Below the pieces are notes generated by a model that was not told the DNA's origin, ran no database searches, and saw nothing but the letters and a program-made list of their open reading frames with translations. Below, one piece after another: positions 10,230 through 15,322 of a stretch of DNA of 64,000 nt. Position 1 is the first letter of the stretch. The number at the start of each line of letters is the position of its first letter. This DNA is from an uncultured cyanobacterium (GTDB lineage: Bacteria > Cyanobacteriota > Cyanobacteriia > Cyanobacteriales > CAWCAG01). The stretch spans positions 32,001 through 96,000 of the forward strand of contig CAWDOD010000003.1 in the NCBI GenBank assembly GCA_963803805.1. Direction: 5' to 3'. The position numbers and the translations under genes are program-made.

Positions 10230-12215
10230 ATGAAAAAAGTGTACCTCACAATTATAACCACTTTCTTAACGCTTGGAATTACTGCTCAAACTATTCAACA
10301 ACTCATAGATTCGGCAGCAACCTTTCCGCCTATGCCAAGGGGCACAGCAGATATGATTCCATTTGTTCAGGGCTTTCCAACTTTCGCTTCAGGAGCACCT
10401 TTCAACGATTTGGATTTTACACTTCTTGACACAGACTATATGGATGGCGAGAATAGTGGTGGAGATGTTTTTATGCCTGTTGACCCTTCAGACCAATTCC
10501 CAGGAGCCGATAAAGTAAAATATATCCGTTGCATTTTAAACACGGATTTAAATCAAGCCTATGGTAGTGCAGATATTGATAGAGTAATTCTTGGAACTCA
10601 CGAAATTAGCGTACCCTTTTTTTTACGTGGCGCTGACGGCATCGACAACGATTATGCTGTTATTCAGCACCTCGATTTTGAAGCGGGATATATTCAGCTT
10701 AAAGGTTCTGCCAATGACTACGATTTGGTATATTGTACTTTAGCTGATGGCTGCCAAACAGAAGGGTGGTATTTATTTTATACTGCCAATAACAGTATAG
10801 ACCTTATTGCATTCATCTATCCTTGCTGGGATATTGAACCTTCTGTAAGTGGTAATCCACCAAATAATCCCAACCCTATTTGTAACTCAGATAGTACCTT
10901 GAGCTTAACTAATCCTACTCATTTCAAATACGCCCAGCCCATTAACACGAATATCACTTTGACAAATGGGATTGCTCAATTTGGAAGCAATGGAAAAGAA
11001 GTCATTGGTGGAATGACAGTCGATAGCCAGGGCAATACATATTTATTTGGACTTACAGACGGCAACTTAGATGGGAATACTGATGCTGACAATGAAATCT
11101 TTGTCATCAAACTTGACATTAACGGAAACCGACAATGGGTGACAGAACTTCCAATGGCAGAAGGAACAATTTTGAAAGACGGAATTACAGACAATCAATT
11201 TTTGTATGTCTGTGGACGGACTTTGGGAAATTTGCCAGGCTTTACGAATGCAGGAAGATGGGACGGCATTATTTTAAAACTTGACCTCTCAAACGGACAA
11301 ATTATAGCGTCAGACCAATGGGGAAATGCAGGAATTGACGGTTATGGAAACATAGAACAAGACGATAACGGAAATATTTTTGTTTCAGCGCAAGGCTCGC
11401 CCGTTGGACAAGGCGGAACAGATGATGTGTATTTGGTTGCCAAACACAGCAAATCTGACCTATCCAACATTTGGCGTGAATTGAATGCACCGAACGCCAC
11501 AGGTTTTATTGCCTCTGCCGAAGCGTGGGGCGGTCTTACTTATGTTCCAAACCAAACCCCAGGTGATGGTAGGCTCATTGCTGGTGGTTGGTATTTTTCG
11601 AATTTAGGAGCTAATGCATTCGTTTCCGTATATGAAAATCTTAACTCTGCCAATCCTACTCGACCACATTCCGAAATAATCAATACACAAGGAATAAGAG
11701 CCGATTGGGTATTAGATAATGCGGTAGACAGTCAAGGAAATATATATGTAGCAGGTTTTACTACAGGCAATTTAGGTTCAACACCACTTGGCGAAGGAGA
11801 TGCCTATATTATCAAGTATTCCCCTCAACTGACAAATCCTGTTTATCTGCAATTTGGAACCAACAAATCAGACCTAATTAGGAAGTTGATTATTCAAAAT
11901 GACACACTCTACACTGTCGGCTACACTTATGGAAACTATATTGGGAATAATGCCGACCCAAATCTACTTTCAGGAGATGTATTTATTCAAAAGTTAGATG
12001 CTAACTTGAACCTTTTAAACGGAATTCAATTCGGAACACCACACGAAGACCGTGGCTTTGGTTATTTAAGAGATACGAATCTATGGATTGGCGGAATGAC
12101 CGAAGGCTATATGTCAGGAAACAATCTTGGTTCTTTTGACGGGTTTCTTGCTGCGGTAAATACGACAGACCTTTCATTGAATAACCGATTGAATAAGAAA
12201 ATTATAAAAGAATAA
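10230..12215 (+). CDS. Secreted SBBP-repeat (beta-propeller) protein
   Basis: Signal peptide; repeats VDSQGNTYLFGLTDG and AVDSQGNIYVAGFTTG, DAYIIKY, DVFIQK; ends in KKIIKE. Confidence 0.75.
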   Translation: MKKVYLTIITTFLTLGITAQTIQQLIDSAATFPPMPRGTADMIPFVQGFPTFASGAPFNDLDFTLLDTDYMDGENSGGDVFMPVDPSDQFPGADKVKYIRCILNTDLNQAYGSADIDRVILGTHEISVPFFLRGADGIDNDYAVIQHLDFEAGYIQLKGSANDYDLVYCTLADGCQTEGWYLFYTANNSIDLIAFIYPCWDIEPSVSGNPPNNPNPICNSDSTLSLTNPTHFKYAQPINTNITLTNGIAQFGSNGKEVIGGMTVDSQGNTYLFGLTDGNLDGNTDADNEIFVIKLDINGNRQWVTELPMAEGTILKDGITDNQFLYVCGRTLGNLPGFTNAGRWDGIILKLDLSNGQIIASDQWGNAGIDGYGNIEQDDNGNIFVSAQGSPVGQGGTDDVYLVAKHSKSDLSNIWRELNAPNATGFIASAEAWGGLTYVPNQTPGDGRLIAGGWYFSNLGANAFVSVYENLNSANPTRPHSEIINTQGIRADWVLDNAVDSQGNIYVAGFTTGNLGSTPLGEGDAYIIKYSPQLTNPVYLQFGTNKSDLIRKLIIQNDTLYTVGYTYGNYIGNNADPNLLSGDVFIQKLDANLNLLNGIQFGTPHEDRGFGYLRDTNLWIGGMTEGYMSGNNLGSFDGFLAAVNTTDLSLNNRLNKKIIKE

Positions 12216-12223
12216 CTGTGCCC

Positions 12224-12302
12224 AACAACTAAGCATTCGTGTGGTCGGTACGACCCAACATAGCCTGTCCCGCAATTCGGGAAATGCAGTGTTGAGCGAA
12301 TC
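12224..12302 (-). repeat. Hairpin att/ori site of the recombinase-transposase module (inverted attC-like site)
   Basis: Minus strand: GATTCGCTCAAC-ACT-GCATT...GGTCG/CGACC stem...AATGC-TTAGTT-GTT; same 3-nt/5-6-nt spacer asymmetry as array sites but on the opposite strand; contains a TCCCG-N5-CGGGA palindrome at 12268-12282. Confidence 0.65.
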
Positions 12303-12927
12303 AGTAGCTTGCTAGAAGTGCTGCACCCTTATGGGTAAACCGAAATGATTGAGTTTAATGTCAGGGCTTAAAAGTGTTTACTTTTAAGCTGGAAGGAGTA
12401 GTCAAATCAAGTATTTTAAGGCTTTATCATATGACTTTTAATATTTTCATTGATTGAGGAGCTATTTTTTCCTCATTTTAGCACATTTTGAGCGTAGTTT
12501 TTCCATTACGCCCATTGCCGTTTCATTTTTTAGTGTCCTTTTAGTTTATTGAGCCAATGAAGAGGTGGTCCCCTTTGATCAAAGACTGCCACGGTTTGAA
12601 GTTTTCCTTTTTTGCAGGTTGGGCAGATGCCCAAGCAGGTAGCGATTGATTCAGCAATAATAATTTCAAGCTTACCTATTTGGCTCTCTATTATCGCCTT
12701 ACATGCTTTTTTACGGCTGCCCGATAAAATACCAAAATGCCTGATTCGAGTAACACCTTTTGGCAGGATATGCATGGCAAACCTTCTGATAAATTCCTTT
12801 GTCTTTAAAGTCACCACATGCTTTTTGCCACCTCTCCTGTACTCTTTGGCAGAGAAGCTGACCCCGTCCTTGTCCACATCGATCAGCCGGTGGTTGCTGA
12901 TGGCCACTTTATGGGTATACCTGCCTA

Positions 12928-12947
12928 GCCCCGATAGCTATCGGGGC
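12928..12947. repeat. Perfect 20-bp palindrome GCCCCGATAGCTATCGGGGC in the transposase
   Basis: Read directly; frameshifts the gene at the inferred YxxRY motif. Confidence 0.85.
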
Positions 12948-13443
12948 CACTACTTGAGTAGGTCCATAAAATTGTTGCTTGCAATAGATCACCCAGTTCT
13001 TTTTAAACAACAGTTGGCCCTCCTGCTTGGTCAGCAGTTCTTCTTTTCTTAATGCGGCCACCATCTTTGCTCTAAATACTTTGCTCATGGCCTTTACAGG
13101 GAAAAGATATTTGCCCTTTCCCTTACCCTCTTTCCATTTTCCCGATCGGGTCAATCCCCCTGAAGGAATGATACAGTGAAGATGTGGGTGCAGGCTCAGG
13201 TTCTGCCCCCATGTATGGAGCACGGCAATCATGCCGTTGTGGGCGCCCATCAACTTGGGGTTAGCCGCAAAATCCTTTACCACTTGCCAAGCTGTTTTGA
13301 ACAATAGCGCATATAGCAATCCAGGCTGTTCCAAGGCCAAACCATTGAGGGTATCGGGCAGGGAAAACACCGTATGAAAATAGGAGGTGTTGAGTAAATC
13401 CTTTTCCCTTTCCTGCACCCACTTTTGCTGTAGGTGCCCTTGA

Positions 13444-13461
13444 TCCCGATAGCTATCGGGA
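13444..13461. repeat. Perfect 18-bp palindrome TCCCGATAGCTATCGGGA in the transposase
   Basis: Read directly; frameshifts the gene at the inferred HCPxC zinc-binding motif. Confidence 0.85.
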
Positions 13462-13665
13462 GGCAGTGCCTGTTGCGGCAGCTATTGTAGCTGAGGTGCA
13501 ATTTATTGCATTTAGGATTATCACAGCGATCAAGGTGACCTCCCATGGCAGACGTCCTGCATTTTGCCAATGCATACAGCGTCCTGCGCTTCCAGCTATT
13601 GCCGATAAGACTTGGCAGTTCATGTAGCTGTTGTTGCAGGATTTGCTGTACTTCAAAAGTGGGCT

Positions 13666-14526
13666 TCATGACCGGTAGAGTTTCTCTAAAGGAGAAAAAG
13701 GCAGTTGCCTGCCCACCCTTGCCACATGCAGGTAGCCCAAGGTGGTCTGGATGTCACCATGCCCGAGCAGATCTTTGAGGGTGATGATATCGGTGCCCAT
13801 TTCCAGCAGATGGGTGGCGTAGCTGTGACGAAGGGTATGGGCTGTGATTTGCTTCTTGATACCTGAGCGTTGCCTGGCTTCACGCATCACCCATTGCACT
13901 CCTCTGGTGGAAAGCCCGGTATATCCTCCTTCTTCATCGGATTGCCCGTTGAAAAGAAATTCAACAGGTTTTTCCGCTTCAAGATAGGTTTCAACGCCAC
14001 GGATCAGTAAGTCACAAAGCGGAACATAGCGGTCTTTCTTTCCTTTTCCCTCCCTCACATGGAGCTGTTTCCTGATTAAATCAAGATCAACAATTTTAAG
14101 CTTGCACAACTCGAAGTTCCTCAGCCCACAGCCATAGAGCAACGCCATCATTAATCGGTGCTTCAGTAGTTTTGGAGTCTTTAAAAGTAAGCGTACTTCT
14201 TGCTGACTTAATACAACGGGTAGTGCCTTCTGCCTTCCAATGGAGGGTAATATCACCCTGCTTTCTGTGCGGTCAAATATCCTGTAGAGGTAGCGAAGTC
14301 CGTAAACGGTGTGCTTGAAGAAGCTATCAGAAGGCGTCTTCCTTTTGGACTTTAACATGTGCAGATAATCCAGGATTTGCTCGTCATCCAGTTCCAGCAA
14401 ATCACATTGCAAGTGCAGACCCATATGTGCCAAACACCTCCCATAATTAGTGAGTGTGCTCTGGCTTTTGCCGGCAATATCAATACTTCTTCTTAGCCTT
14501 TTGTACTGTAGGCCGAAGCCTGGCAC
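13666..14526 (-). CDS. Tyrosine recombinase/integrase (IS91-associated type, not canonical IntI)
   Basis: Catalytic set GLR, REGKGKKDR, HTLRHSYATHLLE, LLGH, TTLGY; N-terminal SAM-like domain; an upstream ATG (14567-14569) is out of frame by one base in an A8 run. Confidence 0.92.
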   Translation of the reverse strand: MPGFGLQYKRLRRSIDIAGKSQSTLTNYGRCLAHMGLHLQCDLLELDDEQILDYLHMLKSKRKTPSDSFFKHTVYGLRYLYRIFDRTESRVILPSIGRQKALPVVLSQQEVRLLLKTPKLLKHRLMMALLYGCGLRNFELCKLKIVDLDLIRKQLHVREGKGKKDRYVPLCDLLIRGVETYLEAEKPVEFLFNGQSDEEGGYTGLSTRGVQWVMREARQRSGIKKQITAHTLRHSYATHLLEMGTDIITLKDLLGHGDIQTTLGYLHVARVGRQLPFSPLEKLYRS

Positions 14527-14659
14527 AGCTTGACAGGCTTTTTCAATTAGGGTATTACTTTTTTTTCATAACTTATAATTTAATGAATGAATACTCAACC
14601 TAAGTTACGGAAGTCTGAACAAATTGTCAGGCTTCCGCCCTTAGGCGGATTCGTTCAAC

Positions 14660-14784
14660 AATGTATATAAAAAATAGGCGATTTAGTAATAAATTCAAGG
14701 TTTTTGCTCATATCAAACTTTGTGTTTAACCGAGAGTTCAGTGATTCGATATCGCCTACTTTTCATATACTAAACGTTAGCGGT
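14660..14784 (+). repeat. attC-like site 9, right part (left core TGTGCCCAAC at 12217-12226)
   Basis: AAT-GTATATAAAAAATAGGCGAT...ATCGCCTACTTTTCATATAC-TAAAC-GTTAGCGGT(14776-14784); near-paralog of site 4. Confidence 0.85.
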
Positions 14785-14833
14785 AATGCAAAAAACACTC
14801 TACAAGAAAACAAAAATTCTAAAATAGAAAGAA

Positions 14834-15322
14834 ATGACAGAGTTAGAAGACAAATTTGAAATTTACGAATTGGCGTATAAGTTTGCTGATGCGGCCAATC
14901 GAAAAGACGGAAAAATGTTTCAATCCCTTTGGGCAGACGAAGGTGCTGAATGGATTATTGGAAAACCCATAAATAAAGAATTTAAAGGAAAAGAAAATAT
15001 GGGTGGGTATGTAACGCAAATGCTCGGGCTTTGGGAATTTTTTGTGCAGATGGTTACTGGCGGAGTTGTAATACTAAAAGGAAATGAGGCATATGCACGT
15101 TTTTATGTTCAAGAAATTGCAAATGGAAAGAATGAAACAGGGAACCATAACCTGAGTATGTACGAGGACGAATTGATAAAAAATGATGGTCTTTGGTACT
15201 TTAAAAAAAGAACATATCATACCATATTTCAATCAACGGAAAGACAAAAGGGAGAAGTTATACAAGTTCCAGATTTACCAGAATGGAGTAAAGAAAAATC
15301 GTTGAACACTAGAGCACAATAG
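14834..15322 (+). CDS. NTF2/SnoaL-like protein
   Basis: IYELAYKFADAANRKD..F.SLW; YEDEL...DGLWYFKKR. Confidence 0.8.
   Translation: MTELEDKFEIYELAYKFADAANRKDGKMFQSLWADEGAEWIIGKPINKEFKGKENMGGYVTQMLGLWEFFVQMVTGGVVILKGNEAYARFYVQEIANGKNETGNHNLSMYEDELIKNDGLWYFKKRTYHTIFQSTERQKGEVIQVPDLPEWSKEKSLNTRAQ

Follow-up and report, generated by a model that had tools for sequence, protein, structure and literature searches.

The window, a stretch of 64,000 nucleotides, contains a 2433-bp IS91-family element at positions 12227–14659 of the minus strand, with a tyrosine recombinase gene (int) followed by a transposase gene (tnp). Metagenome contigs depart from the window at 14656–14661 and 12222–12223, matching these limits, which with an integron-style G|TT cut would instead be 12226–14658. 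The element is present in one copy in the genome and lies, inverted relative to the cassettes, in an integron-like cassette array (G000:C3:11165-46784, 27 attC sites), where it interrupts attC site 9 precisely at its 5'-core AAC. This split and the complementarity of the element ends had been pointed out in a sequence-only reading of the window, and both were re-derived here; that reading placed site 9 in mid-array, but it is actually the last of the 27 sites. In silico removal of 12227–14659 rejoins GTGCCCAAC|AATGTATATAAAAAATAGGCG, with 81–86% identity to six intact ~131-bp sites of the same array. The features of the locus are, by window coordinates and strand:

12218–12226, plus strand: 5' core (R'', GTGCCCAAC) of attC site 9, which the element splits; the cassette of this site begins with the exact reverse complement (GTTGGGCAC, window 10145)
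12227–14659, minus strand: whole element; homology to the related loci L016 and L017 starts and stops at exactly these bases
12227–12290, minus strand: ori-like or attC-like hairpin at the right end (ACT, GCATT stem, 20-nt insert, inner stem, AATGC stem, TTAGTT spacer)
12291–12302, minus strand: right inverted repeat GATTCGCTCAAC (12302–12291) with an R''-like core, 11/12 with the left end
12530–12907, minus strand: tnp fragment 3, C-terminal part, regaining the frame of fragment 1 (PF04986, 1.4e-18; NF033538 positions 248–355)
12909–13418, minus strand: tnp fragment 2, read in a shifted frame, the catalytic core including the HUH motif HPHLH (PF04986, 6.1e-24; NF033538 positions 76–238, 186.9 bits)
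12930–12945, no strand: palindrome 2, a 16-mer identical to palindrome 1; net +13 nt, replacing the E-Y codons of EYLGRY
13277–13669, minus strand: tnp fragment 1, N-terminus and zinc-binding domain, entering palindrome 1 and then out of frame (PF14319, 4.9e-12; NF033538 positions 1–63)
13445–13460, no strand: palindrome 1, CCCGATAGCTATCGGG; net +11 nt, replacing the P-K-C codons of the second CxxC
13666–14526, minus strand: int, intact tyrosine recombinase of 286 aa (Pfam PF00589, 1e-33)
14555–14569, minus strand: mini-ORF ATG-AAA-AAA-AAG-TAA just 5' of the int GTG start, identical in L016 and L017
14634–14649, minus strand: subterminal hairpin beside the left end, TCCGCC-CTTA-GGCGGA on the plus strand, by direct reading of the sequence
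14648–14659, minus strand: left terminal repeat GTTGAACGAATC, the ter-like end and element start (14659–14648), with homologous left ends in relatives
14660–14784, plus strand: rest of attC site 9 (L''...L', R' GTTAGCG), the array's last site, delimited by comparison of the array sites

The int gene, which the sequence-only reading held to be in need of repair, is intact; its start codon is GTG, as in the 286-aa database relatives, and its TGA stop codon overlaps the ATG of tnp (ATGA). The catalytic set R-K-H-R-H-Y is complete (R136, K161/163, H230, R233, H256 and Y265), and the IntI-specific insertion of ~38 residues (at ...EAEKP|VEFLF..., between the K and H-x-x-R regions) is absent, as an alignment with four canonical Bacteroidota IntI, out of ten collected, shows. 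The models that fit best are those of XerA and the integron integrases, and all scores fall below the curated cut-offs: TIGR02249, 166.9 bits versus 265; XerA, 177.7 versus 220; XerD, 142.9 versus 329.6; and XerC, 140 versus 335.15. The TIGR02249 match consists of two stretches flanking a gap. The alignment confirms the earlier description of the catalytic residues and of the missing insertion. In a quick tree of 67 rows, ten IntI and two unlabelled rows form a clade of their own (SH-aLRT 100) and the element recombinase belongs to a separate 10-row clade (100), while the short array-head integrases of Bacteroidota and the IS-borne ones form a common group apart from the IntI clade with weak support (SH-aLRT 80). 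As judged by these comparisons, the element recombinase is not an IntI.

The reading frame of tnp is broken twice, and the three pieces score 51.7, 186.9 and 81.4 bits against NF033538 (IS91 family; cut-off 125). The 11 nt of palindrome 1 are missing from a ~93%-identical metagenome contig, and the counterpart in L016 is an intact gene of 371 aa. HPHLH is retained, and palindrome 2 has removed the first tyrosine of YxxxY, the catalytic tyrosine motif of the IS91 family. Because the two 16-nt palindromes destroy the CxxC and this first tyrosine, and because the genome has no second IS91 transposase gene, leaving the broken tnp as the sole one, the HUH route is closed to this copy in this genome. 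Its sequence marks it as a dead, decayed copy of an IS91-family member.

The ends of the element follow the boundary rule of gene cassettes, running from TTGAAC to TTAGTTG with an R'' core GCTCAAC facing an R' core GTTGAAC. The latter is the left terminus in both Bacteroidota and Planctomycetota relatives, and would serve as the R' core once the element is circular. When the ends are joined, a 12-bp R''/R' stem with AAC/GTT is followed in order by an asymmetric 3-nt/6-nt bubble, a 6-bp L stem and an inner stem-loop; the terminal inverted repeat of 12 bp is complementary at 11 positions, the sole mismatch being a G-T pair on the plus strand. The right-end hairpin contains a private 20-nt insert (12262–12281) and an inner stem (plus strand GGTCG-TAC-CGACC, 12243–12255), and just outside it the DNA reads GTTGGGC, the reverse complement of the interrupted site's GCCCAAC. 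At the left end, a hairpin is kept at the same position in relatives with different letters: CCCC-AAAA-GGGG (L126), ACCT-AA-AGGT (L131) and GCCGC-TGC-GCGGC (L052). For the right-end hairpin, 95.1% of pair cells are paired in the right ends of 13 relatives, representing only about five lineages, versus 30–42% in slid controls, and 9 of the 14 pairs have changed on both sides; by this comparative measure the structure is not due to chance.

In all 14 family members compared, the more stable fold of the end-to-end junction is that of the antisense and not of the sense strand, and in the array the bottom strand folds better at 22 of 27 sites; the sequence-only reading had already seen the strand bias of the array mirrored in the plus-strand G-T mismatch. 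The sequence-only reading of the module as a discrete mobile unit, inverted and with the R''/L''/L'/R' layout and spacer asymmetry of a cassette, is thus borne out by the sequence and by the relatives, and the end layout is compatible with the IS91 ori/ter scheme, as described in PMC13181058.

Matching ends are found in L016, L017, L123–L127 and L131, in 16 Saccharicrinis copies (one chromosome has at least eight loci with identical ends), and in the Arenibacter plasmid pSMS7. Pairs of int and tnp, labelled by PGAP as 'tyrosine-type recombinase/integrase' and 'IS91 family transposase', also occur in Clostridia, Planctomycetota, a delta-proteobacterium and a spirochaete. The expectation that homologous pairs share these ends and accompany arrays holds in part: the Bacteroidota relatives have the same ends and ties to attC, whereas the clostridial ends begin GAAC..., lack the GTT and were seen in no attC context, and four Planctomycetota copies are inserted at CTAAC/ACAAC sites with no obvious attC. 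Neither a circle junction nor an empty site was found in metagenome contigs from relatives ~90–99% alike, a set that covers the locus partially, as the best-matching sequencing run shares no more than 0.17 of its sequence words with the window's total.

In 24 of 24 insertions, TT directly follows the element and T directly precedes it, giving an ..AA|C-A junction. The target rule is RYYYAA|C-A, usually the 5' core of an attC site, entered antisense to the cassettes; among the flanks that hold ORFs, these are antisense to int and tnp in 18 of 22 on the right, the other four not being antisense-dominated, and in 15 of 20 on the left. The attC-type arm pairing of 16 of the 24 rebuilt targets ranks in the best 5% of 512 background AAC sites, and the remaining eight are not recognizable as attC hairpins by this crude metric. 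Given these eight targets and the four Planctomycetota copies without recognizable attC, the core target rule may be a short sequence and not the attC structure.

The flank beside the right end reads (G/A)TTR in all 24 insertions, and the left terminus is GTTG. Five elements have G as their terminal base and 19 have A, the left end always begins with G, and a tandem pair in L021 reads TTAGTT-A-TTGAAC. From the G/A polymorphism and the tandem junction we infer that the crossover lies between bases 1 and 2 of (G/A)TT, the position known from integrons; a tyrosine recombinase and an HUH nick at AA|Y would each account for the polymorphism just as well. Beside AAC, the recombining strand has the 3-nt spacer in the target and the 6-nt spacer in the element, an arrangement not expected of two equivalent attC-type partners.

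Based on the genes, ends and targets, we propose, with a probability of about 80%, that the element is a decayed, attC-homing member of the IS91 family that mimics a cassette and has int translationally coupled upstream of tnp.

One alternative is a plain gene cassette with int and tnp as cargo, which attC x attC recombination moves passively, the enzyme being the integrase of the array or an IntI. The cassette formalism is indeed perfect, with respect to both the TTGAAC...TTAGTTG bounds with their R''/R' pair and the G|TT insertion, and in this genome the transposase is dead while the recombinase at the array head is intact. We nevertheless consider this improbable, since (i) a resident integrase would give array orientation at the R' core or attI, whereas the family is mostly antisense at the R'' core, (ii) the family is multi-copy with identical ends within single genomes, unlike ordinary cassettes, and (iii) the same ends are found outside evident arrays. 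A usual cassette has one promoterless ORF in array orientation; here there are two mobility genes, antisense, at the R'' core.

A recombinase belonging to the array itself is present. A co-oriented tyrosine recombinase of 377 aa (C3:9988-11121) is located at its head, 22 kb upstream of the window; the array begins 44 nt past it with an attI-like start, and this recombinase likewise lacks the IntI insertion. In P0001, of the head-recombinase family, Pfam detects no HARP domain at E <= 1. The sequence-only reading had regarded a canonical intI at the array end as incompatible with its proposal: an integrase does stand at the head, but it is not canonical, and no canonical IntI was found in the genome. 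The head-recombinase family leads cassette chains in 4 of 4 relatives having enough downstream flank, and all 8,000 scored candidate relatives lie at E <= 1e-20, the named ones belonging to several Bacteroidota genera. Chains were called by a cassette-chain rule, three attC scanners having been dropped as noisy (6–11 hits per 43-kb control); as the rule gives chance chains of 1–3 in AT-rich control DNA, those counted have four or more members or start directly after an integrase. Both the element and close homologues of the head recombinase are absent from a same-genus genome and from 29 other relatives. One possible reason for entry into the attC top strand would be a position on the lagging-strand template; the 668-kb contig displays no replication-scale GC-skew trend.

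The sequence-only reading had gone further and put forward the Int/HUH pair as a candidate engine of the array, with the cassettes as its non-autonomous units. IS91 and ISCR relatives can take neighboring DNA along when they read through terIS, the site architecture is common to element and cassettes, and the genome is without a canonical IntI. The first of these points is covered in part by the account of one-ended transposition in PMC13181058. Against this stand the head recombinase and attI-like start of the array, a pairing that recurs in relatives, and the state of the element, a single, inverted copy at the distal end with a dead transposase. The 14 Saccharicrinis copies have no shared flanks adjoining the element, and therefore give no sign that neighboring cassettes are carried along. 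Among 401 sampled Bacteroidota genomes, only the window's own contains the element recombinase at E <= 1e-70, compared with the 8,000 head-recombinase candidates. This part of the earlier proposal is thus not upheld, and we regard it as highly improbable. Most likely the array is served by its own head recombinase rather than by the int-tnp element, which is a guest of the array and not the machine that built it; an 'integron-analogous' system without IntI may be a property of the array itself, and not of the element.

For the attC-homing element, we envisage a mechanism by analogy with IS91, in which the HUH transposase would copy the antisense ('bottom') strand out as a single-stranded circle, the circle would fold into an attC-like hairpin, and it would be joined at AA|C to the folded, single-stranded top strand of an attC site. 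That the IntI-like recombinase performs the joining step has, in our estimate, close to an even chance. Alternatively, the transposase could do so, with the recombinase aiding end recognition or termination as Orf121 does in IS91; to this we give slightly lower odds, somewhat less than even.

A stricter version is pure IS91-type transposition, whereby HUH alone nicks, copies and inserts, attC is a target as an exposed YAAC on ssDNA hairpins, and Int is an accessory (termination, regulation or multimer resolution) like Orf121. The wide occurrence of int-tnp pairs and the Planctomycetota insertions without evident attC would suit it. So would three correspondences with the IS91 family as described in PMC13181058: the end layout and tetranucleotide logic; the left GTTG and flanking GTTR, which mirror terIS and the target GTTC; and the position of int, which takes the place of orf121 with the same ATGA overlap. 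It fits less well with the junction, whose R and L stems and asymmetric bubble recall the sites bound by recombinase dimers and whose stems covary, with the scores that place the recombinase nearest to the XerA and integron-integrase models, and with the crossover one base inside (G/A)TT, as opposed to after the four-base target of IS91 (PMC13181058). We take pure IS91-type transposition as a real contender, with a chance below one half.

At its most far-reaching, the attC-homing reading would make the family a two-enzyme single-strand transposon, in which HUH produces the ssDNA circle and a pared-down, IntI-like recombinase inserts this circle into folded attC, a living link between IS91 and integrons. 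We consider this doubtful; if true, ends of this type may have given rise to cassettes and attC sites, or have arisen from them. To our knowledge, IntI is taken to be the sole editor of integron arrays, with a few IS1111-type elements and group IIC introns as their sole parasites, and we found in the literature no description of such an element or of attC targeting by IS91-type elements. An IS91 relative that homes to attC and mimics a cassette would add a novel class to the parasites or editors of cassette arrays, and would provide a first plausible job for the unexplained integrase gene of some IS91-family elements. It would also offer a natural setting in which to study how folded single-stranded sites could be handled by a recombinase lacking the IntI-specific domain, and would bear on the function of Bacteroidota arrays, as the one here is headed by no canonical IntI.

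Among known systems, IS1111-attC elements and group IIC-attC introns also home to attC in one orientation and exploit the folded site; their enzymes are unrelated (an IS110-type transposase, and a reverse transcriptase with a ribozyme, respectively), and we know of none that imitates a cassette with its own ends. With integron cassettes the element shares the RYYYAAC/GTTRRRY cores, the paired L boxes with spacer asymmetry, one better-folding strand, the G|TT crossover and a circular form with a rebuilt site. It differs from them in bringing its own recombinase and transposase, in its antisense insertion at the R'' core and the multiple copies of its family, and in a recombinase without the IntI-specific insertion, whose TIGR02249 score stays under the cut-off.

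The closest relatives are the HUH/Y2 rolling-circle insertion sequences of the IS91 family (IS91, IS801 and IS1294, with their ISCR relatives), with which the element shares the HUH/Y2 transposase (NF033538, PF04986, PF14319). ISfinder and TnPedia list IS91-family entries with an upstream 'phage integrase' ORF, the same gene pair in the same order, for which, as far as we know, neither an integrase role nor an attC target rule is stated. According to PMC13181058, IS91 produces no target duplication, a 5'-GTTC-type tetranucleotide adjoins oriIS and also marks terIS, subterminal palindromes are present at both ends (that of terIS beside the cleavage site), only the bottom-strand ssDNA circle inserts, and the upstream ORF overlaps tnpA as TGA|ATG. 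The element resembles this in its lack of a target duplication, in the GTT-type tetranucleotide and palindromes at both ends, in the ATGA overlap and, presumably, in the bottom-strand single-stranded circle. It departs from IS91 in its apparent crossover inside (G/A)|TT, in having a full tyrosine recombinase in place of the 121-aa Orf121, and in that its joined ends form an attC-type site and its targets are attC 5' cores.

The module is a mobile genetic element, and its ends are conserved and structured. Its anatomy, first described from the sequence alone, was confirmed by a reading of window positions 11900-15100 together with the ORF list.

Features of the element (window positions)
14659-14648, minus strand: left end, GTTGAACGAATC (direct reading)
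14634-14649: small hairpin after the left end, plus-strand TCCGCC-CTTA-GGCGGA (direct reading)
14526-13666, minus strand: int, gene for a 286-aa tyrosine recombinase (ORF list, Pfam/NCBIfam)
13669-13277, 13418-12909 and 12907-12530, minus strand: tnp, IS91-type transposase gene in three frames (ORF list, Pfam/NCBIfam)
12302-12291, minus strand: right inverted end, GATTCGCTCAAC (direct reading)
12290-12227, minus strand: right-end stretch ACT-GCATT...AATGC-TTAGTT (direct reading)

Read on the minus strand, the flank directly past the right end is GTTGGGC, and the int stop codon and tnp ATG overlap in ATGA. Int matches PF00589 (Pfam, E = 1e-33) and falls below the NCBIfam cut-offs of the integron integrase model TIGR02249 (166.9 bits; cut-off 265), the XerA/integron-integrase model (177.7 bits; cut-off 220) and XerD (142.9 bits; cut-off 329.6). 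The gene had been taken to be broken, which is not the case: its GTG start and 286-aa length agree with database relatives. The transposase matches PF14319 and PF04986 (Pfam), and its match to NF033538 (IS91 transposase; NCBIfam) is split into three pieces. Just 5' of the int GTG lies a five-codon ORF with an A8 run, ATG-AAA-AAA-AAG-TAA (14555-14569, minus strand). It is conserved in the loci L016 and L017 and may act as a leader or as a tract prone to frameshifting. The G+C content of the 2-kb bin 12000-14000, in the element, is 0.457 versus 0.32-0.40 in adjacent cassettes, which fits a foreign origin.

Relatives of the int-tnp pair carry the same ends. The homology shared with L016 and L017, whose Int proteins are 90% identical to the window's, begins exactly at GTTGAAC and stops at TTAGTT, and the same ends are present in loci L123-L127 and L131, in 16 copies from three Saccharicrinis genomes, and in the Arenibacter plasmid pSMS7. 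Four Planctomycetota copies have the same layout in other letters (GTTGAACTAAGCCGC ... GCGGCATAGTTCAAC, hairpin, GTTRRRY flank), and contigs of relatives from four metagenome runs part from the window at 14656-14661 and 12222-12223. Hypersaline-lake metagenome runs contain relatives 90-99% alike at high contig depth (window 12194-14825; runs X1, X2, X3 and X6), and such relatives also occur among the contigs of one RNA library, where presence is not proof of transcription.

An alignment of 13 right ends shows pairing in 95.1% of the cells of the L stem and inner stems, versus 30-42% with the partners slid; both sides have changed in 9 of the 14 pairs of this alignment, and none of 500 shuffles reaches the observed covariation score. 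Because only about five lineages contribute, we consider this covariation to be solid but not deep. A subterminal hairpin is also kept at the left end, with letters that differ among lineages. When the ends are joined, the antisense strand has the more stable fold in 14 of 14 elements, by 1.2-5.1 kcal/mol relative to the sense strand; this advantage includes the G-T pair pointed out earlier at the element ends. Three GC-rich mini-hairpins are private to the window's copy, being absent from L016, L017, L123 and L124.

Private mini-hairpin inserts (window positions)
13445-13460: palindrome 1, 16-nt CCCGATAGCTATCGGG, net +11 nt, in place of the zinc-finger P-K-C codons
12930-12945: palindrome 2, identical 16-nt CCCGATAGCTATCGGG, net +13 nt, replaces the E-Y codons of EYLGRY
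12262-12281: 20-nt insert in the loop of the right-end hairpin

The 16-mer occurs in just these two copies in the 5.3 Mb genome, and the 11 nt of palindrome 1 are absent from a metagenome contig ~93% identical to the surrounding stretch. Similar hairpins of 20 nt are found inside the L017 tnp gene and, in locus L032, upstream of int.

The array interrupted by the element is an ordinary attC-type cassette array. Its intergenic stretches contain RYYYAAC...GTTRRRY sites with paired inner arms, and the cassettes were chained by the rule that each cassette opens with bases (TTNNNNNN) reverse-complementary to its own 5' core. The chain of 27 cassettes extends from GTTGTACAC at position 11165 of contig C3 as far as the site at C3:46778 (window 14778; the window itself is G000:C3:32001-96000), with exact 8-mers in 26 of the 27 links. 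Nine array sites lie inside the window, the interrupted one being the array's last; its 5' core GTGCCCAAC (12218-12226) is exactly complementary to the bases that open its own cassette (window 10145), and its remainder (14660-14784) is 81-86% identical to six intact array sites. The bottom strand is the more stable fold in 22 of the 27 sites. At one site (window 8135, ATTAGAGCC) the 3' core is ATT in place of GTT, the same first-base variation as at the ends of A-type elements. A strongly paired structure of ~171 nt is present in two copies with identical arms, at L014:11949-12120 and in L015 (G000:C3:20211-20381), and the nearly equal lengths of the surrounding cassettes (1250 and 1247 bp) suggest that a cassette was duplicated within the array.

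This array has a head recombinase of its own:

C3:9988-11121 (= L014:9988-11121), outside the window, co-oriented with the cassettes: P0001, gene for a 377-aa tyrosine recombinase

The gene ends 44 nt upstream of the array's first GTT (C3:11165). P0001 aligns to VchIntIA (2a3v) only at residues 12-178 and 245-313, and therefore lacks the IntI-specific insertion; its best solved-structure relative is XerA, and its N-terminal extension of ~105 aa has no Pfam match. No protein of the window's genome reaches the TIGR02249 cut-off; of the 401 Bacteroidota genomes sampled, 22 contain canonical IntI. The P0001 family is widespread in Bacteroidota: all 8,000 candidate relatives scored match at E <= 1e-20, the best 120 of these 8,000 are 363-400 aa long, the named ones belong to Marivirga, Aureibaculum, Aquimarina, Arenibacter and Pricia, and some carry the source label 'site-specific tyrosine recombinase/integron integrase'. 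In the four P0001-clade relatives having enough downstream DNA (L060, L067, L069 and L070), a cassette chain begins 51-52 nt past the stop codon, with 5, 2, 4 and 5 links, respectively; chance chains in control DNA have 1-3.

The sequence-only reading cast the module as a candidate engine of the array, and the presence of this head recombinase argues against that role, as do the following: (i) the element is a single copy in its genome, inverted and located in the last site; (ii) its tnp, the genome's only IS91 transposase gene, is broken; (iii) no shared flank adjoins the element among 14 Saccharicrinis copies, and thus there is no trace of cassettes carried by read-through; and (iv) of the 401 Bacteroidota genomes sampled, a single one, that of the window, yielded the element family.

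Across 205 residues, P0001 is 37% identical to the element's Int. In a quick maximum-likelihood tree of 67 rows, with a single, very long Xer branch as outgroup, the ten canonical IntI group in a clade of their own (SH-aLRT 100), the window's Int falls in a separate ten-row clade (SH-aLRT 100) with six rows known to adjoin an IS91 tnp, and the P0001-type head recombinases form a third (SH-aLRT 98-99); the non-IntI groups are joined weakly (SH-aLRT 80). The element recombinase is distinct from IntI, as had been supposed. An IS91 tnp lies downstream of the int relative in 35 of 79 genome loci, including Clostridia, Planctomycetota, a delta-proteobacterium and a spirochaete. ISfinder contains IS91 entries that have an integrase upstream.

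The target rule was derived by in-silico removal of the element from 24 independent insertions. TT directly follows and T directly precedes the element in all 24, and the target is therefore ...YWAA|C-A. In 16 targets, the arm past AAC pairs with a partner 80-160 nt off, followed by (G/A)TT, at a strength that matches the top 5% of 512 background AAC sites; the remaining eight, three of which have short flanks, show no clear attC-type pairing. Among flanks with ORFs, the ORFs are antisense to int and tnp on the right in 18 of 22 and on the left in 15 of 20; for the window's copy, the cassette chain makes this orientation certain.

The element terminates in G in 5 copies and in A in the other 19, and the left end always begins with G. 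At L021:2676-7400, two Saccharicrinis copies follow each other head to tail and meet in TTAGTT-A-TTGAAC; either one copy integrated into the other's end, or a circle junction became fixed. The G/A split and this junction indicate that the right end brings the triplet's first base with it, which places the exchange between (G/A) and TT, where integrons also recombine.

Alongside the observed limits, conserved folded ends, site and orientation rule, crossover position and strand asymmetry, we propose a mechanism in which the HUH transposase would strip off the antisense strand as a circle, the 12-bp repeat and L stems of the circle would fold into an attC-like hairpin, and the circle would be joined at AA|C to the folded top strand of an attC site. 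The spacer beside the cut AAC is 6 nt on the element's recombining strand versus 3 nt on the target's, which argues against two equivalent partner sites. The joining may be performed by the recombinase (probability about 0.45) or, almost as probably, by the transposase.

In the literature searched, no account was found of IS91-type elements that target attC sites. As described in PMC13181058, IS91-family members make no target duplication, insert adjoining 5'-CTTG or 5'-GTTC at the oriIS end (downstream of tnp), which has one or two subterminal palindromes, and undergo cleavage at terIS, the upstream end, next to a subterminal palindrome (for three of the four members studied, at 5'-GTTC). By the same account, insertion proceeds by a bottom-strand single-stranded circle only, and IS91 orf121, upstream of tnpA with a TGA|ATG overlap, is required for precise terIS cleavage and reduces transposition. 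In comparison, the present family resembles IS91 in its GTTG left terminus, GTTR flank, palindromes at both ends, and upstream ORF with an ATGA overlap onto the transposase gene; unlike in IS91, this ORF is a complete recombinase, the joined ends resemble attC, and the cut apparently falls one base inside the triplet.
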